Assembly: GCA_964344385.1 (NCBI GenBank)
Contig: CAYFNG010000005.1
Span: 23,583-87,582 of the forward strand
Source of the DNA: an uncultured Sneathiellales bacterium
GTDB lineage: Bacteria > Pseudomonadota > Alphaproteobacteria > CAYFNG01
Direction: 5' to 3'
DNA length: 64,000 nt
In this document: positions 3,406-55,625 of the stretch, one piece after another
Layout of the letters: each line of letters opens with the position of its first letter
Numbering within the stretch: position 1 is the first letter of the stretch
The notes under the pieces: generated by a model
What the model was told of the DNA's origin: nothing
What the model saw: the letters and a program-made list of their open reading frames with translations, nothing else
Databases searched by the model: none
Program-made: the position numbers and the translations under genes

Positions 3406-4728
3406 TTAGGCGATCTGTGAGCCGCGCCCAAATTCGGGATAGGCTTCCAGCCCCAGTTCCGCCCGGTCGAGGCCCAGAGCCTCTTCCTCTTCGCTGGCCC
3501 GGATGCCAAAGGTGAATTTCAGCACCAGCCAGACCACGGCGCTGGTGACCGCGACGAACCCGCCAATGGCGACGACGCCAAGCGCCTGGGTCGCGAACTT
3601 GGCGTCACCGTTGGTCAACGGCACCGCCATGGTCCCCCAGATACCGGCCACCAGGTGGACCGGGATGGCACCGACCACATCGTCGATCTTCAGGCGGTCC
3701 AGCAGCGGCACCACAAAGACCACGATAACGCCACCGACCGCACCGATCAGGGTGGCGCTGCCCAGGGTAGGCGTGTCGGGCCCGGCGGTGATGCTGACCA
3801 GGCCGGCCAGGGCCCCGTTCAACACCATGGTCAGGTCCGGCTTCTTATAAAGGATCTGGGTCAGGGCCAGGGCGGCAATGACACCGCCGGCGGCGGCGAT
3901 ACCGGTATTGGCGTAGATATTGGAGATGGCGACCGCGTCGGCGCCGGTACCCAGCGCCAACTGCGAACCGCCGTTGAAGCCAAACCAGCCGAGCCACAGG
4001 ATGAAGGTGCCCAGCGTCGCCAGCGGCAGGGACGAACCGGGCATGACGTTGATGCGGCCATCCGCCCCGTACTTGCCCTTGCGGGCGCCAAGAACGATGG
4101 CACCGGTCAGGGCCGCCCAGCCGCCAACCGAATGCACGATGGTCGATCCGGCGAAATCGGCAAATCCCTTGTTCGACAGCCAGCCGCCGCCCCACTGCCA
4201 GGCACCCTGGATCGGGTAAATGAAGCCGGTCAGCACGACGATGAAAGCCAGGAACGGCCACAGGCGAATGCGTTCGGCCAAGGTGCCGGACACGATCGAC
4301 GCGGCGGTGGCGACGAACACCATCTGGAAGAACCAGTCCGACGAAGCAGCGTAGCCGCCTTCGAAATCACCGGCCAGCGCCTTGGCATCGTCGGCGGACC
4401 ACAGGCCGAAACTGCCGATCCAGCCGCCGTCGACACCGGCGTACATCAGATTGTAGCCGACAAGGTAGTAGAGGATCATCGCGGTCGCAAACAGGGCGAC
4501 GTTCTTTAAGAGGATCGTGGCAACGTTCTTCGAACGCACCAAGCCGGCCTCCAGCATGGCAAAGCCGGCGGCCATGAACATCACCAGGAAGCCGTTCATC
4601 AGGAACGACAGGGTGTTGAAGACATATGTGGCTTCAGGCGTCACTTCGGCCCGGGCCGGGGTGGCGGCAAGGGCCAGAACGCAGGCGACACCCGCGGCCA
4701 TGAGCGGGGTTTTACGGGTCAGGTACAT
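3406..4728 (-). CDS. amtB: Ammonium transporter (Amt family)
   Basis: 11-TM Amt signature throughout (…SIVHSVGGWAALTGAIVLGAR…, GALAGLVSITAG). Signal peptide present. GGAG RBS. Lies immediately downstream of glnK. Confidence 0.95.
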   Translation of the reverse strand: MYLTRKTPLMAAGVACVLALAATPARAEVTPEATYVFNTLSFLMNGFLVMFMAAGFAMLEAGLVRSKNVATILLKNVALFATAMILYYLVGYNLMYAGVDGGWIGSFGLWSADDAKALAGDFEGGYAASSDWFFQMVFVATAASIVSGTLAERIRLWPFLAFIVVLTGFIYPIQGAWQWGGGWLSNKGFADFAGSTIVHSVGGWAALTGAIVLGARKGKYGADGRINVMPGSSLPLATLGTFILWLGWFGFNGGSQLALGTGADAVAISNIYANTGIAAAGGVIAALALTQILYKKPDLTMVLNGALAGLVSITAGPDTPTLGSATLIGAVGGVIVVFVVPLLDRLKIDDVVGAIPVHLVAGIWGTMAVPLTNGDAKFATQALGVVAIGGFVAVTSAVVWLVLKFTFGIRASEEEEALGLDRAELGLEAYPEFGRGSQIA

Positions 4729-6777: not shown

Positions 6778-7686
6778 ATGACGAACCAAACTCCTAAAGT
6801 GGGACTGATCGGCACCGGCGATATGGGACACGCGGTCGGCGGCGCGTTGAAGGACCATGGCCTTGACGTCGTCACCAGCCTGGTCGGGCGCTCGGCGCGG
6901 TCACGCGGCCTAGCGCAGGCCGCCGGCATTCATGACCTGGGCAGCCTGGACGCGGTTGCGGGCACGGCCGATCTGGTGCTGTCGATCCTGCCCCCCGATG
7001 CCGCCCTGCCTGCCGCCGAGGACATGGCCGACGCCCTGGCGCGTAGCGGTGGCCGGCCGGTCTATGTCGATTGCAACGCGGTATCGCCGGACCGGGCCCA
7101 AGCCATTGCCGACCGAATAACCGCGGCTGGCGCGGTCGCGATCGATGTCGGTATCATCGGTGGCGCCCCGGGCCGCGGCGCACCGCCGCGATTCTACGCC
7201 AGCGGACCTGAAGCGGGACGGCTGGAGGTGCTGGACGGCAAGGGCATCGACGTCGCGGTGATCGGGGACGCAATCGGCCGTGCCTCGGGCCTGAAGATGT
7301 GCTATGCGGCGCTGACCAAGGGTCGGATGACGCTGCACACCGCCGTCCTGATCGCCGCCGAGGTGCTGGGGTTGAGCCGCGATTTGCGGGATGAACTCAG
7401 CTATAGCCAGGCCGAAAGCTGGGCGCAAATGCAGCGTACGGTCCCCCGGTTGCCGGCCGATGCCGGGCGCTGGGTCGGCGAGATGGAGGAAATCGCGGCC
7501 ACCTTTCGGGCCGCCGGCGTGACGCCCGGCTTTCACGACGGCGCGGCCGAGATCTTCCGCCTGCTGGCTCAAAGCCCCTATGCGGCCGAAACCCGCGAGA
7601 CCATCGACCCGAACCGGACCGTGGCGGACGCGGTGCCGGTGTTCGCCGCCCTGCTGGCCCAAGGTGGCGGCGAAGCCGAGGACTGA
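6778..7686 (+). CDS. NAD(P)-binding oxidoreductase (6-phosphogluconate dehydrogenase-like NAD-binding domain plus DUF1932-type C-terminal domain)
   Basis: N-terminal Rossmann motif VGLIGTGDMG. Start chosen at ATG 6778 (MTNQTPKV) rather than ORF-track 6589. Confidence 0.7.
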   Translation: MTNQTPKVGLIGTGDMGHAVGGALKDHGLDVVTSLVGRSARSRGLAQAAGIHDLGSLDAVAGTADLVLSILPPDAALPAAEDMADALARSGGRPVYVDCNAVSPDRAQAIADRITAAGAVAIDVGIIGGAPGRGAPPRFYASGPEAGRLEVLDGKGIDVAVIGDAIGRASGLKMCYAALTKGRMTLHTAVLIAAEVLGLSRDLRDELSYSQAESWAQMQRTVPRLPADAGRWVGEMEEIAATFRAAGVTPGFHDGAAEIFRLLAQSPYAAETRETIDPNRTVADAVPVFAALLAQGGGEAED

Positions 7687-7703
7687 ACCAGGCCGGGAGA
7701 GAT

Positions 7704-8243
7704 GTGGTGCGCAGCTTTGTCGCGATCGAGATCCCCGACGATATCCGCCAGGGACTGGCCGGGCTGGCCGGTGGGGTCCCCGGGGCACGGTGGCTGCCGC
7801 CGGACCAGATCCACCTGACACTGCGTTTCGTGGGCGAGGTCAACGGCACCCAGATCCCCGACCTGACCGCAGCGCTGGAGGCGGTTCATGTCGCCCCGTT
7901 CGAGCTCGAGCTCGCCGGGATCGGCACGTTCGGCCATCGCGAAGCGCGGGTGCTGTGGGCGGGGGTCGCGCCGCAGCCCGCCTTGACCACATTGCAGCAA
8001 AAGGTCGAGAACGCGGTGCAGCGGGCGGGACTGGAACCGAACGGTCGCAAATTCACCCCCCACGTCACCCTGGCCCGGCTCAACCATGCCAAAAAAGCCA
8101 AGCTGGGTGAATTCATCAGCCTTCACGGCCTGTACGCCAGCCGCAGCTTTACCGTCGACCGGTTCGTTCTGTTCTCGAGTTTCCTGAGCCACAACGGCGC
8201 CATCCACACGCCCGAGGCCGTATTTCCCCTCAACGGGGGATGA
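7704..8243 (+). CDS. thpR: RNA 2',3'-cyclic phosphodiesterase (2H phosphoesterase, LigT/ThpR)
   Basis: Two H-x-T/S-x motifs (HLTLRF and HVTLAR) at the canonical spacing. GTG start after GGGAGAG. Confidence 0.85.
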   Translation: MVRSFVAIEIPDDIRQGLAGLAGGVPGARWLPPDQIHLTLRFVGEVNGTQIPDLTAALEAVHVAPFELELAGIGTFGHREARVLWAGVAPQPALTTLQQKVENAVQRAGLEPNGRKFTPHVTLARLNHAKKAKLGEFISLHGLYASRSFTVDRFVLFSSFLSHNGAIHTPEAVFPLNGG

Positions 8244-8283: not shown

Positions 8284-9135
8284 TCAATATCCCAACCGAT
8301 CGAGGACCCGCGCCACATCGCCGGCATAGCCGCCGCCAAACAAGCGGACATGGACCAGAAGTGGGTAGAGGTTGTAGAGGTAGCGCCGGACCTCGAAGAA
8401 ACCGGGAGCGATGGTCCGATGATCCTGGTAACAGTCGAAGAAGCGCCTGTTGAATGTCCCGAACAGGGTTCCGAAGGCGAGTTCGATTTCGGCATCGGCG
8501 TAGTAGATCGCCGGGTCGACCACCCCAGTGACCCGGCCATCCGCCGACAGGATATTGCCGGTCCACAGATCGCCATGGACCAGCGACGGCGCGGAAGCGG
8601 CCGGCAGGTGCTCGGCGAGAGACGCCGCCAGCCTTTCCAGCCGGGGCACCAGGACCGTCGGCAGCCTGCCGGCATCCACCGCCTGGCGCGTCATATAGAG
8701 AAGCCGCCGCTCGCGGAAAAAATCGATCCACCCATCCATCCAGCCATTGGGCTGGTTCAGCCCGCCGATGACGGTATCTTGATCCAAGCCAAAGCGGTCG
8801 GCGGTGATTTGATGCTGGCCGGCGATCAGATGGGCCGCCTCGGCCTCGGCGCCGGCGATCCCGGGCCGTCCGTCCAGCCAACTCATCACCAGCAATTCAG
8901 GCTCCGCGCAGATCACATCGGGCACCGGCAGCGGCGACCGGCTGCCAAGCTCAGCCAGCATCCAGCCTTCGAGGTCAAGCCCGCCGCCGCCCGGGGCCCA
9001 TTTGGCGACCAGTGGCGGCCGGTCCACAAAGTCGAGCCGGAAGACCTCGCCGATGCAGCCGCCCGCCAGTCCCCGGATCGCCGTCGGCCGGCGGGCCAGC
9101 GCGGCCTCGATGGCGTTTGCCAGGGCGGCGGTCAC
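8284..9135 (-). CDS. Fructosamine/ketosamine-3-kinase family phosphotransferase
   Basis: APH-like fold. HGDLWTGN catalytic loop and DPAIYYADAEIELA. 4-nt overlap with the upstream phosphatase gene. Confidence 0.8.
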   Translation of the reverse strand: MTAALANAIEAALARRPTAIRGLAGGCIGEVFRLDFVDRPPLVAKWAPGGGGLDLEGWMLAELGSRSPLPVPDVICAEPELLVMSWLDGRPGIAGAEAEAAHLIAGQHQITADRFGLDQDTVIGGLNQPNGWMDGWIDFFRERRLLYMTRQAVDAGRLPTVLVPRLERLAASLAEHLPAASAPSLVHGDLWTGNILSADGRVTGVVDPAIYYADAEIELAFGTLFGTFNRRFFDCYQDHRTIAPGFFEVRRYLYNLYPLLVHVRLFGGGYAGDVARVLDRLGY

Positions 9136-9599
9136 GCCGTGAGCTTGGCCCGCACCGCCGCCAGCAGGCCGGGAATGGCGGCCTCAATCAGTTCGAACGA
9201 CAGGTCGTAATCGGCCTCGCCACCGTAATAGGGGTCCGGGACCTCCTCGGCCGGGTGGTCGGGGGCAAAATCCATCATTCGGAAGACGGTGCCGGGGCGG
9301 GCGTGCCGCGCCATCGCCCGGTAGTGCCCGTTGTCCATGGCGACCAGAAAATCAAACTCGTCATAGTCGGAAGGCAGGAGCCGCCTGGCGCGCAGACTGT
9401 GCAGATCGTAGCCGCGTGCGTCGGCCGCGTTGCGAGCCCTGGGATCCGGCGGCTCACCTTCATGCCAACCGCCGGTGCCGGCACTGTCGACCACCACCTG
9501 GTCGCCCAGTCCTTCGCGTTCGACATAGGTCCGGAACACGCCCTCGGCGGTCGGTGAACGACAAATATTGCCACTGCACACGAACAAGACCTTGACCAT
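9132..9599 (-). CDS. Low-molecular-weight protein tyrosine phosphatase
   Basis: P-loop CSGNICRSP (C-x5-R-S) at the N-terminus and the DPYY motif. Start trimmed to MVKVLFVC (ATG 9599). Confidence 0.9.
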   Translation of the reverse strand: MVKVLFVCSGNICRSPTAEGVFRTYVEREGLGDQVVVDSAGTGGWHEGEPPDPRARNAADARGYDLHSLRARRLLPSDYDEFDFLVAMDNGHYRAMARHARPGTVFRMMDFAPDHPAEEVPDPYYGGEADYDLSFELIEAAIPGLLAAVRAKLTA

Positions 9600-9684
9600 T
9601 TTCGCCCTTCCGTTTTTGTTGTGCGGCACGGCCGACACAGAGTCTTGGAGTCCAGTTCACCGGTCTCTGCTCTGTCCCGCTCCT

Positions 9685-9748
9685 CTGCCCAGCCACCCAT
9701 TGAGGTACCCTGGTAGGAGATTGGGCGGAGGAGCGGGACGGAACAACA
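9685..9748. repeat. GC-rich palindromic dispersed repeat, copy A (core ...CCACCCATTGAGGTACCCTGGT...)
   Basis: Imperfect hairpin gtcccgctcctcTgccc...gggcGgaggagcgggac around a GGTACC centre. Copies at 34379-34455 (perfect) and 13815-13855 (half) share the core. Lies in the divergent intergenic region between the LMW-PTP gene and cobB. Confidence 0.7.
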
Positions 9749-9806
9749 CCCCGAAACAGCGCGGCTGGCGCATTTTCGGCCACAAACCTAGAGGGTAACC
9801 CGTATC

Positions 9807-10517
9807 ATGTCGAAATACGACCGCATCGTCATCCTGACCGGCGCCGGGATCTCGGCCGAGTCCGGGCTCGGTACCTTCCGTGACGAGGATGGCCTGTGGA
9901 CCAAATACGACCTGGAAGAGGTTGCCACTCCCGGCGGCTTTGCCCGCAACCCCGATTTCTGCCACGAATTCTACAACGCACGGCGCCGCAACCTGCTGGA
10001 CGCCGAACCCAATGATGCCCATCGCGCCCTGGCCAAGCTGGAACAGGACTATGCCGGCGAGGTGTTGGTGGTGACCCAGAACATCGACGACCTGCACGAG
10101 CGCGCCGGCACCACGCGCTTGATCCACATGCATGGCGAGCTGTTGAAAAGTCGCTGCGAACTTTGCAACACAGTCTTCACCTGGCGCGACGATTGCAGCA
10201 CCGCCAACGCCTGCCCGGCCTGCGCCGAGACCGGCGCCTTGCGGCCGCATGTGGTCTGGTTCGGCGAGATGCCGTATGAGATGAACCGGATCTACAGCGA
10301 ATTGGAGCGTTGCGACCTATTCCTGTCGATCGGCACGTCGGGCAATGTCTATCCGGCGGCCGGTTTTGTCGAGGCGGTGCGCGGCCGCGGCCGGGCCCAC
10401 ACCATGGAACTCAACCTGGAACCGTCCGAGGGAGCCAGCCTGTTCGCCGAACAAATCCTTGGCCCCGCCACGGAGATCGTCCCCACCGCCGTGGAGCGGC
10501 TGTTGACGGCCGGCTAA
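9807..10517 (+). CDS. cobB: NAD-dependent protein deacylase (Sir2 family)
   Basis: GAGISAESGLGTFR Rossmann motif, Zn ribbon C-x2-C...C-x2-C (CELC...CPAC), and the catalytic His in IDDLHERAG. Confidence 0.9.
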   Translation: MSKYDRIVILTGAGISAESGLGTFRDEDGLWTKYDLEEVATPGGFARNPDFCHEFYNARRRNLLDAEPNDAHRALAKLEQDYAGEVLVVTQNIDDLHERAGTTRLIHMHGELLKSRCELCNTVFTWRDDCSTANACPACAETGALRPHVVWFGEMPYEMNRIYSELERCDLFLSIGTSGNVYPAAGFVEAVRGRGRAHTMELNLEPSEGASLFAEQILGPATEIVPTAVERLLTAG

Positions 10518-11347
10518 CGCCGGCAGACCAGGGCGGGGCAGTCAAGCTGTTCGATCAGGCTCTGCAATTCCTCGGGCGCGAAGGCGCTGGCCGCCAGCAC
10601 CATGAAACCACGACCGTCGGCACGGGCCGCGTCCGCCGCGTCCATCGGCCGTGACAGGGTGCGGAATTCGGCATCCAGGACCGGGTCGAGATGGCCGACC
10701 GCATGGGCCTGCATCTCGGCCGCATCGGCGCCGGGGGGCGGCAGCAGGTAGACCACCACCATGCCGGCATCATTGCGGGCCAGCCGTGAGGCCAAGGCCA
10801 GGGCGCGCTCGCCGCAGGGCGAACCGTCATAAACCACCCCCACCCGATGTGGCGCCGACAGCGCCCCTTCGGCGGTCAACAACAGGCCGCAATGGGCGGC
10901 CGACGCCAGCGACCGGGCGGTGCTGCCCAGCCGGGCCCGCCGGGTCAGGGGCCGGATCGCCTTGCCCATGGCCATCAGGTCGGATTCCAGCGCCGCCCGC
11001 ATCAGTTCCAGTTCAACCCGACCGCGGGCGATTTCGAACGACCAGCGCAAGTTTCGTTCGCGGGCCGCAGCCTCGATCGCCCGGCGCGCCATTACCGCCT
11101 GGGCCCGCACCTGGGACTCAATCTCGGTCCGTTGGGGGCGACCACCACTGCCTGAGATGACCTGCACCTCGCGGGCAACCGGCAGGGCCGCCAGGTTGAT
11201 CAGGTTGATGTCCTCGACGAAGATGCCGTGCAGGTCGACACCGAGCCGGGCCGCCAGACGGGCCGCCTCGGTCAGCGCCGCCAGGCTCTCGGGCGAGGCA
11301 TCCAGGGCGACCAGCACCCGGCTGATCTCGTCCCGGCCGCCGGTCAC
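10514..11347 (-). CDS. Universal stress protein, tandem UspA domains
   Basis: Two USP-like alpha/beta domains (VLVALDASPES..., VGVVYDGSPCGE...). 4-nt overlap with the upstream Lon-like gene points to an operon. Confidence 0.65.
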   Translation of the reverse strand: MTGGRDEISRVLVALDASPESLAALTEAARLAARLGVDLHGIFVEDINLINLAALPVAREVQVISGSGGRPQRTEIESQVRAQAVMARRAIEAAARERNLRWSFEIARGRVELELMRAALESDLMAMGKAIRPLTRRARLGSTARSLASAAHCGLLLTAEGALSAPHRVGVVYDGSPCGERALALASRLARNDAGMVVVYLLPPPGADAAEMQAHAVGHLDPVLDAEFRTLSRPMDAADAARADGRGFMVLAASAFAPEELQSLIEQLDCPALVCRR

Positions 11348-13788
11348 GGTTTCGACTCCTCGTCCTCGGTGCCTTTCCCGGTCGCCCCGAACGCCTTGCG
11401 GGCCTCGGCCAGCGCCTTCAGGCGCTGCTCCACCAGGTGGAAGACGGTGCCTTCCGGGAAGGCACCGTCGGCGTCGCGCACGCCCGCCGGCACCCCGGTC
11501 AGCAGTTCGATCCCTTCGGCAATCGTCGCCACCGGGAAGACCTGGAAGCGGCCCTCGGCACAGGCCTCGACCACGTCGCGGCGCAGCATCAGGTGGGTGA
11601 CATTGGCGGCCGGGATCATCACGCCCTGCTCGCCGGTCAGGCCCTTGCGCCGGCAGACATCGAAGAAGCCCTCGATCTTTTCGTTGGCGCCGCCGATCGC
11701 CTGCACTTCGCCCAGTTGGTTGACCGAGCCGGTCACCGCCAACGACTGGCGGATCGGCAGGCCGGAAAGGGCCGACAGTAGGGCATAGAGTTCAGTCGAC
11801 GAGGCGCTGTCGCCGTCGACCCCGCCATAGCTCTGTTCGAAGACCAGGCTTGCCCCCAGGGACAGAGGATGGTCGGTGGCGAAGGTGGCCCCCAGATAAC
11901 CGGCCAGGATCAGCACGCCCTTGGAATGCAAGGGCCCGCCCAGTTCCACCTTGCGTTCGATGTCGATCACCTCGCCGCCGCCCATGCGGACCCGTGCGGT
12001 GATCCGGCTGGGCCGGCCGAAGCTGAAATTGCCGAGGCTGAGGACCGAGAGCCCATTGACCTGGCCGACCTCGGCACCGTCGGTCGAGATCATCATGATA
12101 TCGCGCTCGATCATCTCGTGGCTGCGCTCGCGCAATCGGTCGGCGCGGTGGATTTGGGCATCAATCGCCTGCTCGATATCGGCGGCGCTGACCACCTTGC
12201 GGGTGGCCTCGCCGGCCCAGTAATCGGCCTCGCGCATGACGTCGGCCACGCTGCCGATGCGCGAGGTCAGCCGGGCATTGTCGCCGGCCAGCCGGGCGCT
12301 GTGCTCGATCACCCGGGCCACCGCGTCCCGGTCCAGGGGTTTCAGCCCCTCACGCCGGGCGACGGTGGCGACCAGCCTGGCATATTGCTGGGTGACGCCA
12401 TTGTGCCGGTCCATTTCGTCGTCGAAATCGGCCGCCACCTTGAATAGCTCGGAAAAATCCGGCTCGTACTGGCAGAGCAGGTAATAGAGCCGACGATCGC
12501 CGATCAGTACCACTTTCAGATCCAGCGGGATTGCCGCCGGGTCCAGCGACACGGTGCTGACCAGGCTCATGGCCTGGCCCAGGGATTCGATCCGCACCTC
12601 CTTGCCCCGCAAGGCGGATTTCAGCGCCTCCCAGCCATTGGGCTGCATCAGGAGTCGCCGGGCGTCGAGCAGCAGGTAGCCGCCATTGGCGCGATGCAGG
12701 GCGCCCGGCTTGATCAGCCGGAAATCGGTGACCAGGGCGCCCATCTCAGAGAGATGCTCGATCCGGCCGACCAGATTGGCGTGGCTGGGATGATCCTCGA
12801 ACACCACCGGCGCGCCCTTGGCCTCGCCGTTGTCGATCACCAAATTGACCTCGTAGCGGCCCAGGGACGGTTGGCTGCCACCGGCCCGCGCGCCCGGCAT
12901 GCCGCCGCCGGCCAGCACCGCCTGAGCGCCCTCCGCCTTCTGGCCGAGGAAGCTGTCGACATTTTCGCCGACGTCCTTGCGCACCGCTGCCAGGTAGTCG
13001 CCGATCGCCGCGTGGTCGCGGTAACGCTCGCGGACCGCGTCGATCAAATGGCCAACGGCGTAGGCCGAGACTTCGCGGTTGAGGTCCCGCACCCGGTCGC
13101 CATGGTCCTTGGCCCAACTCGGGATCTGCTGGACGATGCCCTGCAGCTGTTTTTGCAGGTCCTCGATATCCGCCTCGATACGGTGGCGCTCCGTTTCCGA
13201 CAGGGTTTCGAACTCTTCCGGCTTCAGGACCTCGCCATCCTTGACCGGCGCCATGCCGAACCCCATTGGAGTGCGGATCAGGGCAATCCCCTTGTCCTTG
13301 GCCCGGTTCTGAAGGTCATCGAAGGCGGTTTCCTGGCGCTGTTTGAACTCCTCTTCGATCACCTGGCGGCGGTTGCGGTAGTCGTCGCTTTCGAAGGCCG
13401 CCGGGATCGCCGATTTCAGATCGGCAACCAGTTGCGCCATGTCCTGGCGAAACTGCCGTCCCAGCCCCGCCGGCAATCGGACCGCGACCGGTTTGTGCGA
13501 CATCTCGAAGTTGAAGAGGTAGCACCAATCGTCCGGCACCGGGGCCTGGGCCGCGGTTTCCTCGAGATAGCGTTTCAGGGTGGTGTGCTTCCCCGCCCCG
13601 GGCGGGCCGAGCGCGAACAGATTGTACCCTTCGCGCTTGATGCCGATGCCAAAACGGATGGCCGCCAGGGCCCGGTCCTGACCGATGATTTCATCCAAAT
13701 CGGCAAGATCGTCGGTGGTGGTGAAGTCGAGGCTCGCCGGATCGCAACGCTGGTACAGGGACTCTACCGGTAACGGGTCGGGCGCCAT
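11344..13788 (-). CDS. Lon-like ATP-dependent protease (COG1067/LonB-BrxL-type: AAA+ ATPase plus Lon S16 proteolytic domain)
   Basis: Walker A GPPGAGKHT. C-terminal S16 domain ...GVDGDSASSTELYALLSALSGLPIRQSLAVTGSVNQLGEVQAIGGANEKIEGFF with the Ser-Lys dyad region. Strong RBS AGGAGGG ahead of ATG 13788. Confidence 0.85.
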   Translation of the reverse strand: MAPDPLPVESLYQRCDPASLDFTTTDDLADLDEIIGQDRALAAIRFGIGIKREGYNLFALGPPGAGKHTTLKRYLEETAAQAPVPDDWCYLFNFEMSHKPVAVRLPAGLGRQFRQDMAQLVADLKSAIPAAFESDDYRNRRQVIEEEFKQRQETAFDDLQNRAKDKGIALIRTPMGFGMAPVKDGEVLKPEEFETLSETERHRIEADIEDLQKQLQGIVQQIPSWAKDHGDRVRDLNREVSAYAVGHLIDAVRERYRDHAAIGDYLAAVRKDVGENVDSFLGQKAEGAQAVLAGGGMPGARAGGSQPSLGRYEVNLVIDNGEAKGAPVVFEDHPSHANLVGRIEHLSEMGALVTDFRLIKPGALHRANGGYLLLDARRLLMQPNGWEALKSALRGKEVRIESLGQAMSLVSTVSLDPAAIPLDLKVVLIGDRRLYYLLCQYEPDFSELFKVAADFDDEMDRHNGVTQQYARLVATVARREGLKPLDRDAVARVIEHSARLAGDNARLTSRIGSVADVMREADYWAGEATRKVVSAADIEQAIDAQIHRADRLRERSHEMIERDIMMISTDGAEVGQVNGLSVLSLGNFSFGRPSRITARVRMGGGEVIDIERKVELGGPLHSKGVLILAGYLGATFATDHPLSLGASLVFEQSYGGVDGDSASSTELYALLSALSGLPIRQSLAVTGSVNQLGEVQAIGGANEKIEGFFDVCRRKGLTGEQGVMIPAANVTHLMLRRDVVEACAEGRFQVFPVATIAEGIELLTGVPAGVRDADGAFPEGTVFHLVEQRLKALAEARKAFGATGKGTEDEESKP

Positions 13789-13814
13789 CTCATAACCCTC
13801 CTAGTGGATGAAAT

Positions 13815-13855
13815 CTAACATAAGGTACCCTGTCATTGGGTGGTTGGGCGGCAAG
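13815..13855. repeat. Half copy (C) of the GGTACC-centred palindromic repeat family
   Basis: aaGGTACCCTGtcattGGGTGGTTGGGcggcaAGCGG matches the right arm of the copy at 34379-34455. Confidence 0.55.
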
Positions 13856-13899
13856 CGGACTGGAACAGCAATCGCCAAACCGAAACCATCACCTTCCAA

Positions 13900-14322
13900 T
13901 CAGTCTTCGTAACTCTCCTCGATCGCCTGCATGTCGGCATCCGAAAGGCCATAGTGGTGGCCGATTTCATGGATCAGCACGTGGCGCACCACATGCATCA
14001 GATCCACATCATGTTCGCACCAATAATCCAGGATCGGTCGCCGGTAGAGGAAGATCATGTCAATCGCCTGCGGCACGTCCAGGACCGATTTCTGATCCAA
14101 GCTGACCCCCTTATAGAGGCCCAGCAGGTCAAACGGGCTTTCCAGCTCCAAGTCAGCCGCGACGTCCGCATCCGGAAAGTCCTCGACCCGGACGACCAAG
14201 CCGGAAATCGGCCGCCGGAGCTTTTCCGGCAGGCTTGCCAAGGCGGTTCGCGCCATTGTCTCGATATCCCCGAGACTGGGCGCGCGTGCGGCGACTTCTG
14301 GTGGCGGAACGCGTGGCTTCAT
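13900..14322 (-). CDS. Zincin-like metallopeptidase-fold protein (DUF1025/Zincin_1 family)
   Basis: HEIGHHYG zinc-binding motif close to the C-terminus. Small acidic protein. Confidence 0.75.
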   Translation of the reverse strand: MKPRVPPPEVAARAPSLGDIETMARTALASLPEKLRRPISGLVVRVEDFPDADVAADLELESPFDLLGLYKGVSLDQKSVLDVPQAIDMIFLYRRPILDYWCEHDVDLMHVVRHVLIHEIGHHYGLSDADMQAIEESYED

Positions 14323-14618
14323 GCCGAATAAGATAGTACCGCAAGCCGGGAAGTACCATGCACGTCCGGCCTTAAACAGCGAAAAATCCCGCCGATCGTT
14401 TAACTATGAAAAACTTTCGGATAATCCCGGCAAGCGGGTTCAAAGCTTACCCTTTTTTAATCTCGTTACCCGACACTCGCAGGCGGTGAACAACCACTAT
14501 CGTGCCAAGGTCAATGGCCCACTTGCCTGGCGCGCTTGGTGCAGATGTGACAGGTGGCCCAGGAGGCCAGAACAACAACCAATTCCGGCGCGACGACATC
14601 ATCCCCCGAGAGAGTCAG

Positions 14619-34353: not shown

Positions 34354-34378
34354 GGGTTTGTCTTACAAAGTGGCCGTT

Positions 34379-34455
34379 CCATCCCGCTCCCCCTCCCAAC
34401 CACCCATTGATGGTACCCTGGTGGGTGGTTGGGAGGGGGAGCGGGATGGAACAGG
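34379..34455. repeat. GC-rich palindromic dispersed repeat, copy B (27-bp perfect arms, 17-nt loop ATTGATGGTACCCTGGT)
   Basis: ccatcccgctccccctcccaaccaccc / gggtggttgggagggggagcgggatgg are exact reverse complements. Lies 3' of pspF and could double as a terminator. Confidence 0.8.
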
Positions 34456-51850: not shown

Positions 51851-52615
51851 ATGGCCGGTACGACACGCGTCCTGAACGTCACCGCTGTCCTGGGCCTGGC
51901 TCTGGCGCTGGGCGCCCTGGCCGCCTGTACGCCGTCCGCCGCTTCGAGCCCCGTCAACGACGATAACCGCGAGCTGGTGGTGCTGTTGCACGGGCTGGGG
52001 CGCAGCCCCTCGGCCATGCGGTCGCTGGCCGGGCGGCTGGAAGCGGCCGGCTACCGGGTCGAACGGCCCGGCTACAGTTCGTTGGACAGCAGCCCCGATG
52101 ACATCCTGGCCGAAGTGAGCGACAAGATCGCGGCCCTGGGCATCCAACGGGCGCCGCGCGTGCATTTTGTCGGCCATTCCCTGGGCGGCCTGTTGATCCG
52201 TGCCTTTCTCGCTGATAACGAGCCGGCCAATCTCGGTCATGTGGTGGTGATCGGTTCGCCCAATCACGGCACCCCGCTGGTCGACAATCTGCGCGGCAAA
52301 TGGTGGTTCGACATGCTGGGACCGATGACCCTGGCGCTGGGTACCGGTCGCGACAGCTTTCCCAGCCGGCTGCGGCCCCCGGATTATCCCCTTGGTGTCA
52401 TCGCCGGCCGGGTCGAACGCGACAATGACGACCTGTTGCCCGGCCCCGATGACGGGCTGGTCACCGTCGCCTCGACCAAGGTCGAGGGCATGGCGGACTT
52501 CGTCGTCCTGGACGCCCATCACGCGGCCCTGCGCTCCGACAAGGCCGCGGCCGCCCACACCGTGAGCTTTCTGAAGCGCGGTCGTTTCGGCGCCGGTGCC
52601 GCCCATGTCGACTGA
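51851..52615 (+). CDS. Alpha/beta-hydrolase lipoprotein (lipase/esterase; GHSLGG nucleophile elbow)
   Basis: Lipobox LAAC after a signal peptide. GHSLGG serine motif. RBS GGGAG. Confidence 0.8.
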   Translation: MAGTTRVLNVTAVLGLALALGALAACTPSAASSPVNDDNRELVVLLHGLGRSPSAMRSLAGRLEAAGYRVERPGYSSLDSSPDDILAEVSDKIAALGIQRAPRVHFVGHSLGGLLIRAFLADNEPANLGHVVVIGSPNHGTPLVDNLRGKWWFDMLGPMTLALGTGRDSFPSRLRPPDYPLGVIAGRVERDNDDLLPGPDDGLVTVASTKVEGMADFVVLDAHHAALRSDKAAAAHTVSFLKRGRFGAGAAHVD

Positions 52616-53768
52616 CGACACCCTGGCTCTGCCGCGAGCCCGCCGCCTGCGGTTCCGCCGCTTCACCTTGCGGGTTTTATGGCTGTTTGCCGCCGCGCAT
52701 CTCTATGTCGGCTGGCGCCTATTGCCGGACCTACCCCTGGCCCTACCCTGGCAGGTCCTGGGTGCCCTGACCCTGGTCGCTTCGACCCTGTTGATCCCGT
52801 TCGGCACCATGGCACGGCTGTTCCTGGGCGACGAAGCGGCGGTCGACCGGCTGGTCTGGGCCGGCTCCCTGGCCATGGGCTGGTTCTCATCGCTGCTGAT
52901 CCTGACCCTGATACGGGATCTTGCCCTGATTGTTCCCGCCTTGCAGCCCTGGACCGCCGACAGCGCCATGCTGGCGGTCGTGCTGGCGGTTGTCGTGACG
53001 GCAATCGGGTTCCTGAACGCAAGGCGGGTGGCCAAGGTGGTGCCGGTCGACATCATGCTGCCCAACCTGGCGCCGGAGCTCGACGGTTTCACCATCGTCC
53101 AGATCAGCGACATTCATGTCGGCGCCACCATCAAGGGCGACTATGTCGACGGCATCGTCCGGCGGGTCAATGCGCTGCACCCGGATCTGGTGGCGATCAC
53201 CGGCGACGTGGTCGACGGCACCGTGGAACGCCTGGGCGACGAGACCCGGCCCCTGGGCGACCTGCGCGCCCGCCACGGCGCCTATCTGGTGACCGGCAAC
53301 CACGAATACTATTCCGGTGCCGATGCCTGGGTTGACGAATTCGCGCGGCTGGGCCTGGTCCCGCTGTTGAACCAGCACGTTGTGATCGACCATGGCGGCG
53401 CCCAATTGGTGGTCGCCGGGGTCAACGATTTCAGCGCCGCCCGGGTCCACCACGACCATGTCAGCGACCCCGGAGCGGCAGCCAAGGGCAGCCCCGAAGG
53501 CGTATTGAAAGTCCTGCTGGCCCATCAGCCGCGTTCGGCTGCGGCGGCGGCCGCCGCCGGTTTCGACTTGCAGCTCTCGGGCCATACCCATGGCGGCCAG
53601 TTCTGGCCCTGGAACCATTTCGTCCGCATGCAACAGCCCTATACCGCCGGCCTGTACCGGCACGGCGATTTGCAGGTCTATACCAGCCGCGGCACCGGCT
53701 ATTGGGGCCCTCCCAAGCGCTTCGGCGCCCCGTCCGAGATCACCCGGATCACCCTGCGCCGGGGGTGA
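52605..53768 (+). CDS. Membrane-anchored metallophosphoesterase (calcineurin-like)
   Basis: Four N-terminal TM helices, then MPE motifs IVQISDIHVG, GDVVDG, GNHEY, and GHTHGG. Confidence 0.85.
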   Translation: MSTDDTLALPRARRLRFRRFTLRVLWLFAAAHLYVGWRLLPDLPLALPWQVLGALTLVASTLLIPFGTMARLFLGDEAAVDRLVWAGSLAMGWFSSLLILTLIRDLALIVPALQPWTADSAMLAVVLAVVVTAIGFLNARRVAKVVPVDIMLPNLAPELDGFTIVQISDIHVGATIKGDYVDGIVRRVNALHPDLVAITGDVVDGTVERLGDETRPLGDLRARHGAYLVTGNHEYYSGADAWVDEFARLGLVPLLNQHVVIDHGGAQLVVAGVNDFSAARVHHDHVSDPGAAAKGSPEGVLKVLLAHQPRSAAAAAAAGFDLQLSGHTHGGQFWPWNHFVRMQQPYTAGLYRHGDLQVYTSRGTGYWGPPKRFGAPSEITRITLRRG

Positions 53769-53801
53769 AGGGGTCGGGTCGTGCTTTAGTTGCGATTTAA
53801 G

Positions 53802-53926
53802 GCCAATCAAGGCGACACGAATTAAGGGGACACGAATTAAGGGGACACAATACTTAATTCCACGCATGAATTAAGTATTGTGTCCCCTTAATTCGTGTCC
53901 CCTTAATTCGTGTCGCCTTGATTGGC
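53802..53926. repeat. 125-bp perfect palindrome (59-bp stem, 7-nt loop) containing tandem GACACGAATTAAGGGGA units
   Basis: Base-by-base check: 53802-53860 is the exact reverse complement of 53868-53926, with loop CACGCAT. Each arm holds two direct copies of gacacgaattaagggga plus gacacaatacttaattc. AT-rich relative to the genome. Intergenic between the metallophosphoesterase and GMC oxidoreductase genes. Confidence 0.9.
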
Positions 53927-54026
53927 ATCCCCTTGATCACCCAAACGCCGGCAAATGTCGCATAGGCCAAAGGACCGCGCGGTGAATACGGCTAAGCTGT
54001 CACGGTTTGCGGATCGGGAGCGGCGC

Positions 54027-55625
54027 ATGGCGGTTGGCGGGTACGATTATATTGTCATCGGCAGCGGCTCGGCCGGCGGGTTGCTGACTTACCGTCTGAC
54101 CGAGGCGCGGGACATCAAGGTACTGCTGCTGGAGGCCGGCGGCCGGGAGGGGCATTGGTCGATCCGGATGCCGGCGGCGGCCCGCAACAACTTTATGGGC
54201 GGGCCGCGCAACTGGTGCTTCGAAACCGAGCCCGAGCCCCACATGTTCGGCCGCCGCATCTTCCAGCCGCGCGGCAAAGTGATCGGCGGTTCGTCTTCGC
54301 TCAACGGCATGGTCTTTGTCCGCGGCCACCGGCGCGACTATGACGGCTGGGCGGCGGACGGCGCGCCGGGCTGGGGCTATGACGAGGTGTTGCCCCATTT
54401 CCGGAGCCTGGAGCGCTACCTGCCCGGGGCCGATGCCTATCGCGGCGACGGCGGCCCGATCGTCGTCGAGCGGCTGGGTGACCACCATCCGATCGAACAG
54501 GCCTTTCTCGACGCCGCCCAGCAGGCCGGCCACGCGCAATCGACCGACTATAACGGGGCCGAGCAGGAAGGCGTCACGCCGTTCGACGCCAACATCTTCC
54601 GGGGCGAGCGGTGCGGCACCGCCGCCGCCTGCATCGCCCCGGCCCGGGCCCGGCCCAACCTGACCATCGCGACCGGCGCCCAGGTCACGAAGATCGTCAT
54701 CGGGGGCGGCCGCGCGGTCGGCGTCGACTATGTCCAGAGCGGCCAGGTTCGGCAGGCAAGGTGCGAGCGCGAGGTGATCCTGAGCGCCGGCGCCATCCAA
54801 TCGCCGCAGATCCTGATGCTGTCGGGCATCGGCCCCGCCGATCACCTGCGCGACCATGGCATCGCGGTGGTCCAGGACCTGCCCGGGGTCGGCGAGAACC
54901 TGCAGGACCATCTGGAGGTCCATATCAAGCACCGCTGCCCCGGCGGCCTGGCCAAGAACCGCCTGTTGCGCAAGCACCGGATGGCATTGATCGGCCTGCA
55001 ATGGTTTCTCGCCAAGGCCGGTCCCGGCGCCACCACCCACAGCCGGATCGGCGGTTTTCTGCGCACCGACGCCGCCGCCGACTATCCCAATATGCAGTTC
55101 CATTTCTGGCCCTACTTTCTGGAGGGCTGGTCGCCGCCGCCGCACAAGGACGGCTACTGCTTCGACGTCGGCCCGACGCGCAGCAACAGCCGCGGCTGGG
55201 TCCGCCTGGCGTCAGCCGATCCCCTGGCCAAACCGCTGATGCGGTTGAACGGACTGTCGACCGAGCGCGATTTGGAGGAGTTCCGGGCCTGCCTGCGGAT
55301 TACCCGCGAGATCGCCCGCCAGTCGGCCTTCGACTTCTGCCGCGGCCCCGAGGTGGCGCCGGGGCCGGAGGTCACCTCGGACGCCGACATCGACGATTTC
55401 GTGCGCGCCAACGCCAACAGCGCCTACCACCCCAGCGGCACCTGCAAGATGGGCAGTGACGTGCTCGCGGTGGTCGACCCGGAGCTTAAGGTCCATGGGG
55501 TCACAGGTTTAAGGGTGGCGGACGCGTCGATCATCCCGACCATCCCCAACGGCAACCTCAACGCCCCGTCCCTGATGATCGGCGAGCGGGCGGCCAGCCT
55601 GATCCGCAATCAGCAAGCCTCCTGA
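54027..55625 (+). CDS. GMC-family oxidoreductase (choline dehydrogenase-like)
   Basis: YDYIVIGSGSAGGLL FAD motif, GMC signature GGSSSLNGMVFVRG, and the C-terminal His-containing active-site region …YHPSGTCKMG…. Confidence 0.9.
   Translation: MAVGGYDYIVIGSGSAGGLLTYRLTEARDIKVLLLEAGGREGHWSIRMPAAARNNFMGGPRNWCFETEPEPHMFGRRIFQPRGKVIGGSSSLNGMVFVRGHRRDYDGWAADGAPGWGYDEVLPHFRSLERYLPGADAYRGDGGPIVVERLGDHHPIEQAFLDAAQQAGHAQSTDYNGAEQEGVTPFDANIFRGERCGTAAACIAPARARPNLTIATGAQVTKIVIGGGRAVGVDYVQSGQVRQARCEREVILSAGAIQSPQILMLSGIGPADHLRDHGIAVVQDLPGVGENLQDHLEVHIKHRCPGGLAKNRLLRKHRMALIGLQWFLAKAGPGATTHSRIGGFLRTDAAADYPNMQFHFWPYFLEGWSPPPHKDGYCFDVGPTRSNSRGWVRLASADPLAKPLMRLNGLSTERDLEEFRACLRITREIARQSAFDFCRGPEVAPGPEVTSDADIDDFVRANANSAYHPSGTCKMGSDVLAVVDPELKVHGVTGLRVADASIIPTIPNGNLNAPSLMIGERAASLIRNQQAS

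Follow-up and report, generated by a model that had tools for sequence, protein, structure and literature searches.

The window analysed here is a 64,000-nucleotide stretch of contig CAYFNG010000005.1 (assembly GCA_964344385.1) from an uncultured Sneathiellales bacterium, and the element in question is a perfect palindrome of 59 + 7 + 59 nt at positions 53802-53926 that carries no gene. The palindrome lies between two genes on the plus strand, a metallophosphoesterase gene (52605-53768) whose stop codon is 34 nt ahead of it, and a GMC-family oxidoreductase gene (54027-55625) whose start is 100 nt past it. A TetR-family gene is located about 2 kb upstream of the palindrome. The closest named relatives of the metallophosphoesterase belong to Sneathiella and Rhodospirillaceae and share about 65% identity with it. 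Two open reading frames (ORFs) that cross the palindrome, 53590-53874 on the plus strand and 52887-53867 on the minus strand, had been dismissed as artefacts in a preliminary description of this DNA, and both are indeed absent from the called genes of the public contig; because no gene is called across the palindrome there, they are considered spurious. Overall, the palindrome is very probably a non-autonomous, gene-less derivative of a TIRtron, in which two TIRYT-type ends stand head-to-head without the gene. A TIRtron consists of a gene for a TIRYT-type HUH/Y1 transposase (subclass 2.1, group 1 of the REP-associated tyrosine transposases or RAYTs) between inverted terminal repeats with a GGGGWSAS core (Di Nocera, 2013; PMC3733652). 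The palindrome is therefore read here as a member of a known, little-studied mobile repeat family and not as a locus-specific regulatory site; it is the TIRYT counterpart of a REPIN, the inverted doublet of repetitive extragenic palindromic (REP) sequences.

A repeat search recovered the arms exactly as first described, at 53802-53860 and 53868-53926, each 59 nt long and 100% complementary to the other, with the non-palindromic 7-nt spacer CACGCAT (53861-53867) as the hairpin loop between them. The innermost left end copy (53836-53860, plus strand) reads ATTAAGGGGACA-CA-ATAC-TTAATTC, in which a GGGGWSAS-type core, GGGGACAC, is followed by ATAC as in the left ends of the full-length TIRYT units at loci L051 and L133. 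Its exact reverse complement, GAATTAA-GTAT-TG-TGTCCCCTTAAT, forms the innermost right end copy (53868-53892, minus strand). Two 25-nt ends (ATTAAGGGGACACAATACTTAATTC and its complement) are in this way placed head-to-head across the 7-nt spacer, each with two further 15-bp copies of its outer 12-mer on the outward side. On the left these are ATTAAGGGGACA+CGA at 53821-53835, a tandem copy of the outer 12-mer, and a diverged third unit, ATCAAGGCGACA+CGA, at 53806-53820 (both on the plus strand). On the right they are TCG+TGTCCCCTTAAT at 53893-53907 and, as the mirror of 53806-53820, the diverged third unit TCG+TGTCGCCTTGAT at 53908-53922 (both on the minus strand). Each arm contains three head-to-tail units, the outermost of which is diverged, and on the minus strand at 53927-53937, outside the perfect palindrome, the right side has a fourth unit in degenerate form, ATCCCCTTGAT. 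The tandem period is 15 bp in each arm (TRF consensus AATTAAGGGGACACG, with copy numbers of 2.9 for the left array and 3.7 for the right one) and not the 17 bp proposed at first, the 17-mers in question overlapping by 2 nt. Both substitutions of the third left unit are mirrored on the right arm, and because the diverged unit is mirrored exactly, one arm appears to have been copied from the other. The core GGGGACAC occupies 53841-53848 and is mirrored at 53880-53887; the pattern GGGGWSASNATAC is confined to these two sites within the window (2 matches against 0.02 expected). As single-stranded DNA the palindrome region is predicted to fold with -75.7 kcal/mol, compared with -17.7 +/- 3.1 kcal/mol for shuffled sequences (z = -18.5; 0 of 200 shuffles as good). 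Its GC content is 44.8% against 63.9% for the window, in keeping with the earlier remark that it is AT-rich relative to the genome. The palindrome sequence contains no GTAG or GTGG, the conserved tag being ATTAAGGGGACA, and no target-site duplication was seen around it.

The palindrome belongs to a dispersed sequence family that is demonstrably shared across phyla. Tandem copies of the 12-mer ATTAAGGGGACA / TGTCCCCTTAAT, for the most part paired in inverted orientation across a variable stem that is self-complementary, were found in at least 100 metagenome contigs from several phyla. A species-level scan (one genome per species) with a pattern of one and a half units gave three matches, namely a near-identical palindrome (AATTAAGGGGACACGAATTAAGGGGACAGTATACTTAATTG-AAC-AATTAAGTATACTGTCCCCTTAAT...) in a Syntrophales metagenome-assembled genome (MAG; locus L001) and partial arrays in two alphaproteobacterial MAGs. 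A scan of metagenomes for two tandem TGTCSCCTTRAT at most 30 nt apart gave at least 120 loci, against about 3 expected by chance on a rough estimate. This pattern made no demand for an inverted partner, and an inverted motif partner together with 8 nt of adjoining stem was present within 250 nt in 52 of the 120 listed loci. The common layout runs from ATYAAGGGGACA through NN into one arm of a self-complementary 10-17-nt stem, and from the loop back through the other arm of the stem and NN to TGTCCCCTTRAT, with one to five additional 12-mer copies outward on one or both sides. In all, 57 core hairpins with 27 distinct stem sequences were counted in 48 loci. The stem varies by subfamily while its complementarity is kept, as in CCATACTTAATT, GTATACTTAATT, CAATACTTAATT (the window type), GTGACCCTAATT and GGTTTTTGAATGAATTC. 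Over 38 distinct hairpins, Watson-Crick pairing at stem positions 1-4 amounts to 92-97%, and each of these positions shows 2-4 pair types. The GC content of the host contigs ranges from 34 to 71%, and locus L114, from a contig of 44.6% GC, matches the window core nearly base for base over about 70 nt. The palindrome looks AT-rich in a 64% GC genome because the family is shared by hosts of differing GC content.

Several contigs (L080, L055, L046, L077, and L098) carry multiple hairpin copies in different intergenic regions. The densest set was observed in L080 (contig Ga0326512_10000199), where four hairpins of one subfamily (stems GGTCCATGATCGCTC / GGTCGCGTGATTC) lie in both orientations within 6 kb (8658-14379) together with further single motif copies, a REP-like density that contrasts with the one copy found across the 64-kb window. 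Tandem copies of the outer piece are systematic in the family, and occur in full-length units, in gene-less hairpins, in one-sided arrays with no partner and in pure arrays with a period of 11, 12 or 17. Pure head-to-tail arrays of TGTCCCCTTAAT, with 3 to 6 copies, were observed at L008 (5413-5484), L023 (1233-1266), L087 (500-533) and L094 (821-926), with periods of 12, 11, 11 and 17, respectively, and no hairpin partner lies near the first three. Scans of viral contigs with two patterns gave no match, nor did a BLASTN search of the palindrome against 72,556 plasmids, and a full-text literature search with the motif strings hit nothing but primer sequences, all unrelated.

The family is associated with one kind of transposase gene. 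All-versus-all clustering of the ORFs within 4 kb of the motif yielded a single recurrent family, Pfam Y1_Tnp (IS200-like HUH tyrosine transposase), which tblastn detected in six motif loci; in the five clustered loci the motif is 32-103 nt from the end of the Y1 ORF. The Y1 protein is about 221 aa in length. Its best NCBIfam model is the REP-associated tyrosine transposase, with 59-66 bits for the two best-matching proteins and 26.5 bits for the third, all below the cutoff of 80 bits, and its best PDB match is ISDra2 TnpA (E = 4e-4), with E. coli TnpA-REP matching weakly. The associated proteins contain LMPNHVHLI, HLWQGRF, and RYIELNPVRA. Di Nocera (2013; PMC3733652) has described RAYT-like genes with long terminal inverted repeats (TIRs) in place of GTAG REPs, and has named the enzymes TIRYTs and the units TIRtrons. 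Compared with the TIRYT alignment taken from Additional file 5 of that study, the protein of locus L051 shares full-length identity of 81% with the listed TIRYT GSU2396 (Geobacter sulfurreducens) and protein P0026 shares 68%, which shows the identity of these enzymes with published TIRYTs. TIRYTs correspond to TnpA-Y1 subclass 2.1 (Quentin, 2018; PMC6006769) and to RAYT group 1 (Bertels, 2017; PMC5581495). Members of subclass 2.1 have the HuH motif NHVH, W[EQ], the Y motif YIELNP, a median length of 238 aa and a C-terminal extension with similarity to helix-turn-helix domains (PMC6006769). The NHVH, WQ and YIELNP motifs, together with the 81% identity to GSU2396, place the associated enzyme in subclass 2.1. 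A search from the protein side gave at least 8000 homologue clusters; the hosts named are Alphaproteobacteria, Thermodesulfobacteriota, Planctomycetota, Trichloromonas, Thermoguttaceae, and Hydrogenedentes, with 63-68% identity to the query.

The DNA around six of these homologues (L124/125, L126, L127 at 10001-10666, L133/134, L135, and L136) shows that the association is physical and specific. In all six fetched loci the Y1 gene is bounded by GGGGACA-NN-AYAY upstream and by RTRT-NN-TGTCCCC right after the stop codon, and over all Y1 genes inspected such flanks were found in 7 of 8 (6 of 7 distinct loci). The left end is 55-75 nt upstream of the gene and is followed by a TTGA/TTGAC-like hexamer in five of the six loci, none being present in L133/134. 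Two right ends depart from this form, that of L127 being degenerate (GTGTCTC) and that of L133/134 spanning just 8 nt. Five loci out of six, all but L136, have the outer part of one or both ends repeated in tandem. Ends of the ATTAAGGGGACA type flank Y1 genes on the left in L051 and L133/134 and on the right in L026, all of them related loci outside the window. The left end of L133/134, an alphaproteobacterial MAG, contains ATTAAGGGGACA twice, and that of L051, ATTAAGGGGACACCATACTTAATTC, is one mismatch from the inner arm of the window palindrome. The wider GGGGACA-NN-ATAC type flanks Y1 genes in L124-L127, L135, and L136. The inverted ends of full-length units measure 8-13 nt, and no separate hairpins were seen at each end by eye, no fold or repeat search being made.

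Full-length units also bear on how gene-less hairpins may have arisen. In the subfamily with the stems GGTCCATGATCGCTC and GGTCGCGTGATTCGCTC the two inner arms are consistently unlike and are similar to the two ends, left and right, of the full-length unit in L082, which indicates, from sequence comparison, that this subfamily is probably a left-plus-right deletion derivative. For the window subfamily, a left-left fold-back origin is conceivable. Loci L124 and L125 encode an identical TIRYT protein (P0098) and have four and one right-end copies of GGTGTCCCCCGATT, respectively (L124 10682-10780, L125 3614-3640). This suggests rapid change, and the difference reflects either a copy-number polymorphism of the terminal unit or collapse of the repeat in one of the assemblies. 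Also observed in L125 was a tandem duplication of the left end and the first ~60 nt of the gene. On the Mb-scale contig of L127, two TIRYT-type Y1 genes (7450-8124 and 10001-10666) lie 2 kb apart and have different inverted terminal repeats; the additional gene at 7450-8124 is of a different kind, with the inverted repeat AAAGGGGTCGGGAGTCT.

The likeness to published TIRtrons is close. The TIRs of the units described by Di Nocera share the motif GGGGWSAS, and TIR families of moderate abundance have been reported, many of them 'organized as REPs in dimers or clusters' (PMC3733652). The window core GGGGACAC fits GGGGWSAS, the same ends flank Y1 genes whose products have NHVH, WQ and YIELNP (one of them the protein 81% identical to GSU2396), and the family likewise occurs as singles, dimers and clusters with a patchy cross-phylum distribution. 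Unlike those TIRs, the window copy is gene-less and its arms are perfectly mirrored over three units. In addition, the available portions of three studies (PMC3733652, PMC6006769, and PMC5581495) contain no description of a systematic outward repetition, in tandem, of an outer end piece of 11-17 bp, or of conservation at the nucleotide level of a 12-mer such as ATTAAGGGGACA across hosts of 34-71% GC. Quentin (2018; PMC6006769) found no canonical REPs near subclass 2.1 genes.

The family also resembles several other systems of small mobile repeats. It shares with REPINs and REP-BIMEs the form of non-coding intergenic inverted doublets that fold into hairpins, the presence of the same repeats on both sides of a gene for a single-strand-DNA Y1 enzyme and a frequent position downstream of genes. 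REPINs and REP-BIMEs are reportedly mobilised by RAYTs (TnpA-REP), a finding said to go back to Nunvar in 2010, Bertels and Rainey in 2011 and Ton-Hoang in 2012. Unlike them, the window family has no GT[AG]G tag at the foot of the hairpin, its units are not themselves short GC-rich hairpins, its enzyme belongs to subclass 2.1 and not to the REP-linked subclasses 2.2, 2.4, 2.5, 2.7, and 2.8, and it is common to several phyla instead of being lineage-specific. With IS200/IS605 elements it has in common the HUH/Y1 catalytic fold, ISDra2 TnpA being the best PDB match, and, by analogy, probably the recognition of DNA as a single-strand hairpin. IS200/IS605 elements differ in having two dissimilar, subterminal, imperfect hairpins that are not inverted repeats of each other, whereas the window arms are exact inverted repeats; the window family is also without a tnpB partner, and its enzyme is longer (~221 aa), with a C-terminal extension. 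Classical miniature inverted-repeat transposable elements (MITEs) such as Correia/NEMIS, RUP, ERIC, and Nezha are similarly short, non-coding and intergenic, with terminal inverted repeats and the capacity for long hairpins. Those elements are derived from DDE-type insertion sequences and have target-site duplications, whereas the partner here is a Y1 enzyme and no such duplication is seen. The preliminary description had named a MITE or foldback element among its options, with reclassification as an ordinary MITE family should many identical copies come to light. That option was essentially right, since the palindrome belongs to a dispersed non-coding hairpin family derived from the ends of a transposase-bearing unit, and the many copies across metagenomes make it an ordinary repeat family.

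On the analogy of IS200/IS605 TnpA and of TnpA-REP from E. coli, a TIRYT probably acts in trans on the palindrome as a single-strand hairpin. The ends would pair into a hairpin on single-stranded DNA, for example on the lagging-strand template, and a TIRYT encoded elsewhere in the genome would recognise, cleave and rejoin the hairpin, by which the element would be moved or amplified. On the same analogy, the outer tandem copies may be by-products of repeated end processing or of slippage, or may provide extra binding sites for the C-terminal domain; slippage, repeated insertion of an element beside its own end and selection for several binding sites are all possible sources of such copies. The mirroring could result from recent copying between the arms, through conversion or through synthesis on a fold-back or hairpin template. 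An effect on neighbouring genes, for example as a hairpin at the 3' end of an mRNA, would be secondary. It is doubtful, if conceivable, that the arrays and the mirrored arms were made by the TIRYT itself and not by slippage, in a REPIN-like system that spreads horizontally across phyla and amplifies its ends in a way of its own. In that event, the enzyme would cut and rejoin repeatedly, by HUH chemistry, at the outer boundary (...CCTTAAT), and this, combined with strand-switch or fold-back joining, would amplify the end pieces and produce perfect palindromes; the C-terminal domain would find multiple landing sites in the 12-mer arrays. Such a system, if true, would differ from the REPIN-RAYT systems of gammaproteobacteria, which are inherited vertically.

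Several observations weigh against the reading of the palindrome as a gene-less TIRtron derivative moved by a TIRYT. No Y1 gene was found in the 64-kb window, where the best tblastn match had E = 0.2, and repeat and pattern searches of the window gave no second copy of the palindrome repeat. No biochemistry of TIRYTs was found in the literature under that term (PMC3733652, PMC6006769), and the single-strand hairpin mechanism rests on analogy for this reason. The covariation of the stems fits a single-strand mechanism and, equally, double-stranded terminal repeats bound by one protein, and does not discriminate between these mechanisms because it is expected under both. The arms are unequal in most family members, so that the perfect three-unit symmetry in the window needs an extra, unspecified event. 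Moreover, about 10-15 of the 120 listed loci are unrelated tandem repeats that match the G-variant (TGTCGCCTTGAT) of the degenerate pattern, some of them coding (L011, L016, L027, L074, and L123). An empty orthologous site was also sought by means of the flanking metallophosphoesterase; identity to the closest relatives is at most 70%, and neither of the two loci examined has the same downstream gene, and because of this distance and this difference a comparison with and without the element is not possible.

The possibility that the palindrome is an artefact, either a palindromic mis-join or a symmetrised repeat, arises because the window is part of a 441-kb metagenome contig (assembly ERZ930065, run ERR2281800) built with a k=127 de Bruijn graph, the palindrome is 125 nt long, and short-k assemblies break at this site. 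It is nevertheless extremely improbable, since a 237-kb contig assembled from a different run (ERZ930061, run ERR2281801) is identical to ERZ930065 over the entire palindrome region, unique genes stand on both flanks, and comparable palindromes occur in many independent assemblies, Mb-scale contigs included. Logan contigs (k=31) from six runs in all, five plus the window's own ERR2281800, confirm the mirrored outer units. Four of them (L129-L132) stop exactly 63 nt past the upstream gene, within the second unit of the left arm, and agree on the diverged third left unit, and two (L144-L145) start at the mirror position in the right arm and agree on the diverged third right unit, so that both diverged outer units are independently confirmed. 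The k=31 assemblies break at the first repeated 15-bp unit because 31-mers are no longer unique there. The least secure point is the number of central units, which the k=127 assemblies alone provide. A locus-specific operator array, in which the units would be half-sites of a dimeric regulator such as the nearby TetR-family protein and would control the GMC oxidoreductase gene, is suggested by the position of the palindrome 100 nt upstream of the oxidoreductase start, by the TetR-family gene about 2 kb upstream and by the arrangement of the units in inverted arrays. This explanation is highly improbable, because the same 12-mer, and even the 25-nt arm, recurs in unrelated contexts, more than 100 in number, whose hosts range from 34 to 71% GC, and because the same units flank Y1 transposase genes; furthermore, no promoter-like site was found in 53500-54200 and the synteny of the flanking gene pair is not kept in the two nearest relatives examined. 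The preliminary description had compared each unit with an operator half-site among possible protein-binding sites, and the units are plausible as end sites of the transposase, whereas half-sites for a local regulator are implausible because the same sequence is present in more than 100 unrelated genomic contexts.

A role at the RNA level would make the palindrome either a structured small RNA or a hairpin at the 3' end of the metallophosphoesterase transcript, with a terminating or stabilising effect. The palindrome starts 34 nt past the stop codon and forms a very stable hairpin, and REPs are known to terminate or stabilise transcripts as 3' hairpins (PMC3733652). A crude ORF count with no control found that, of 41 family hairpins, 38 lie at most 200 nt from the 3' end of a frame of 120 codons or longer on one side or both, 21 of them on both. 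As the main function of the element such a role is nonetheless unlikely. The 3' flank of the palindrome, GGCATCCCCTTGATCACCC, has no T-run and the scan of 53500-54200 found no terminator-like site; Rfam 15 gave no hit at gathering thresholds in the window, and a permissive scan gave only sub-threshold matches to miRNA-precursor and generic hairpin models, which lends no support to the small RNA suggested earlier. The tandem units at the DNA level, their presence in both orientations and their flanking of transposase genes point to a DNA element, of which an effect of the hairpin on the upstream transcript is a possible by-product. The palindrome might also be a MITE of a transposon with no Y1 enzyme, for instance of a DDE family with multiple subterminal sites, and its association with Y1 genes a coincidence. 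Repeated subterminal units are found at the ends of Tn7, Mu, and IS21, and the palindrome has terminal inverted repeats with repeated subterminal units; moreover, transposase genes of the IS110 type (L125, L126) and the DDE_Tnp_1 type (L126) are present near some of the Y1 loci. This is very unlikely, since no DDE family recurred near the motif in the ORF clustering, the Y1 gene lies exactly between inverted ends in all six fetched loci, and the window palindrome fits the published TIRYT TIR consensus and is without a target-site duplication.

Other candidates were tried and rejected. An integron attC site would have RYYYAAC/GTTRRRY cores, which are absent, and the pairing of the arms is perfect; a protelomerase target does not agree with a centre that is not dyad-symmetric. 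A parS or iteron centromere is at odds with the presence of the same sequence in unrelated chromosomes across phyla, a CRISPR with the absence of spacers and a Rho-independent terminator with the absence of a T-run after the stem. The suggestion that the palindrome is the remnant of a replication origin or a dif-like site found no support.

The gene-less TIRtron reading turns an eye-catching palindrome into an ordinary mobile-repeat relic, for which no origin, dif site or operator is needed. TIRYTs (subclass 2.1) are the second-largest Y1 subclass and have been neglected, and their ends form abundant cross-phylum gene-less hairpins and tandem end arrays, in a subclass that has been reported to be without repeats. 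The conserved 12-mer offers a concrete substrate for binding and cleavage assays in vitro. Such elements also break short-k assemblies and seed spurious ORF calls, and the palindrome itself was observed to act as a systematic contig breaker for short-k assemblers.

Two further repeats were observed in the window. Directly after the metallophosphoesterase stop codon, at 53768-53778, lies AAGGGGTCGGG, which is similar to AAAGGGGTCGGGAGTCT, the inverted repeat of the second Y1 gene of L127. The likeness may be due to chance, or this may be a solo end, beside the palindrome, that belongs to another TIRYT family; the sequence has one exact match in the window, and its matches with one mismatch are not enriched. 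A second palindromic repeat family, unrelated to 53802-53926, has copies at 9668-9745 and 34376-34452, both of which read GTTCC(R)TCCCGCTCC ... CCACCCATTGA(K)GTACCCTGGT ... GGAGCGGGA(Y)GGAAC. The copy at 34376-34452 has perfect arms of 31 nt around a 15-nt spacer. With up to two mismatches, the 15-mer of this family has 5 matches in the window against 0.6 expected; the fifth, at 3657-3671, is unrelated, and the other four are the arms of the two copies.

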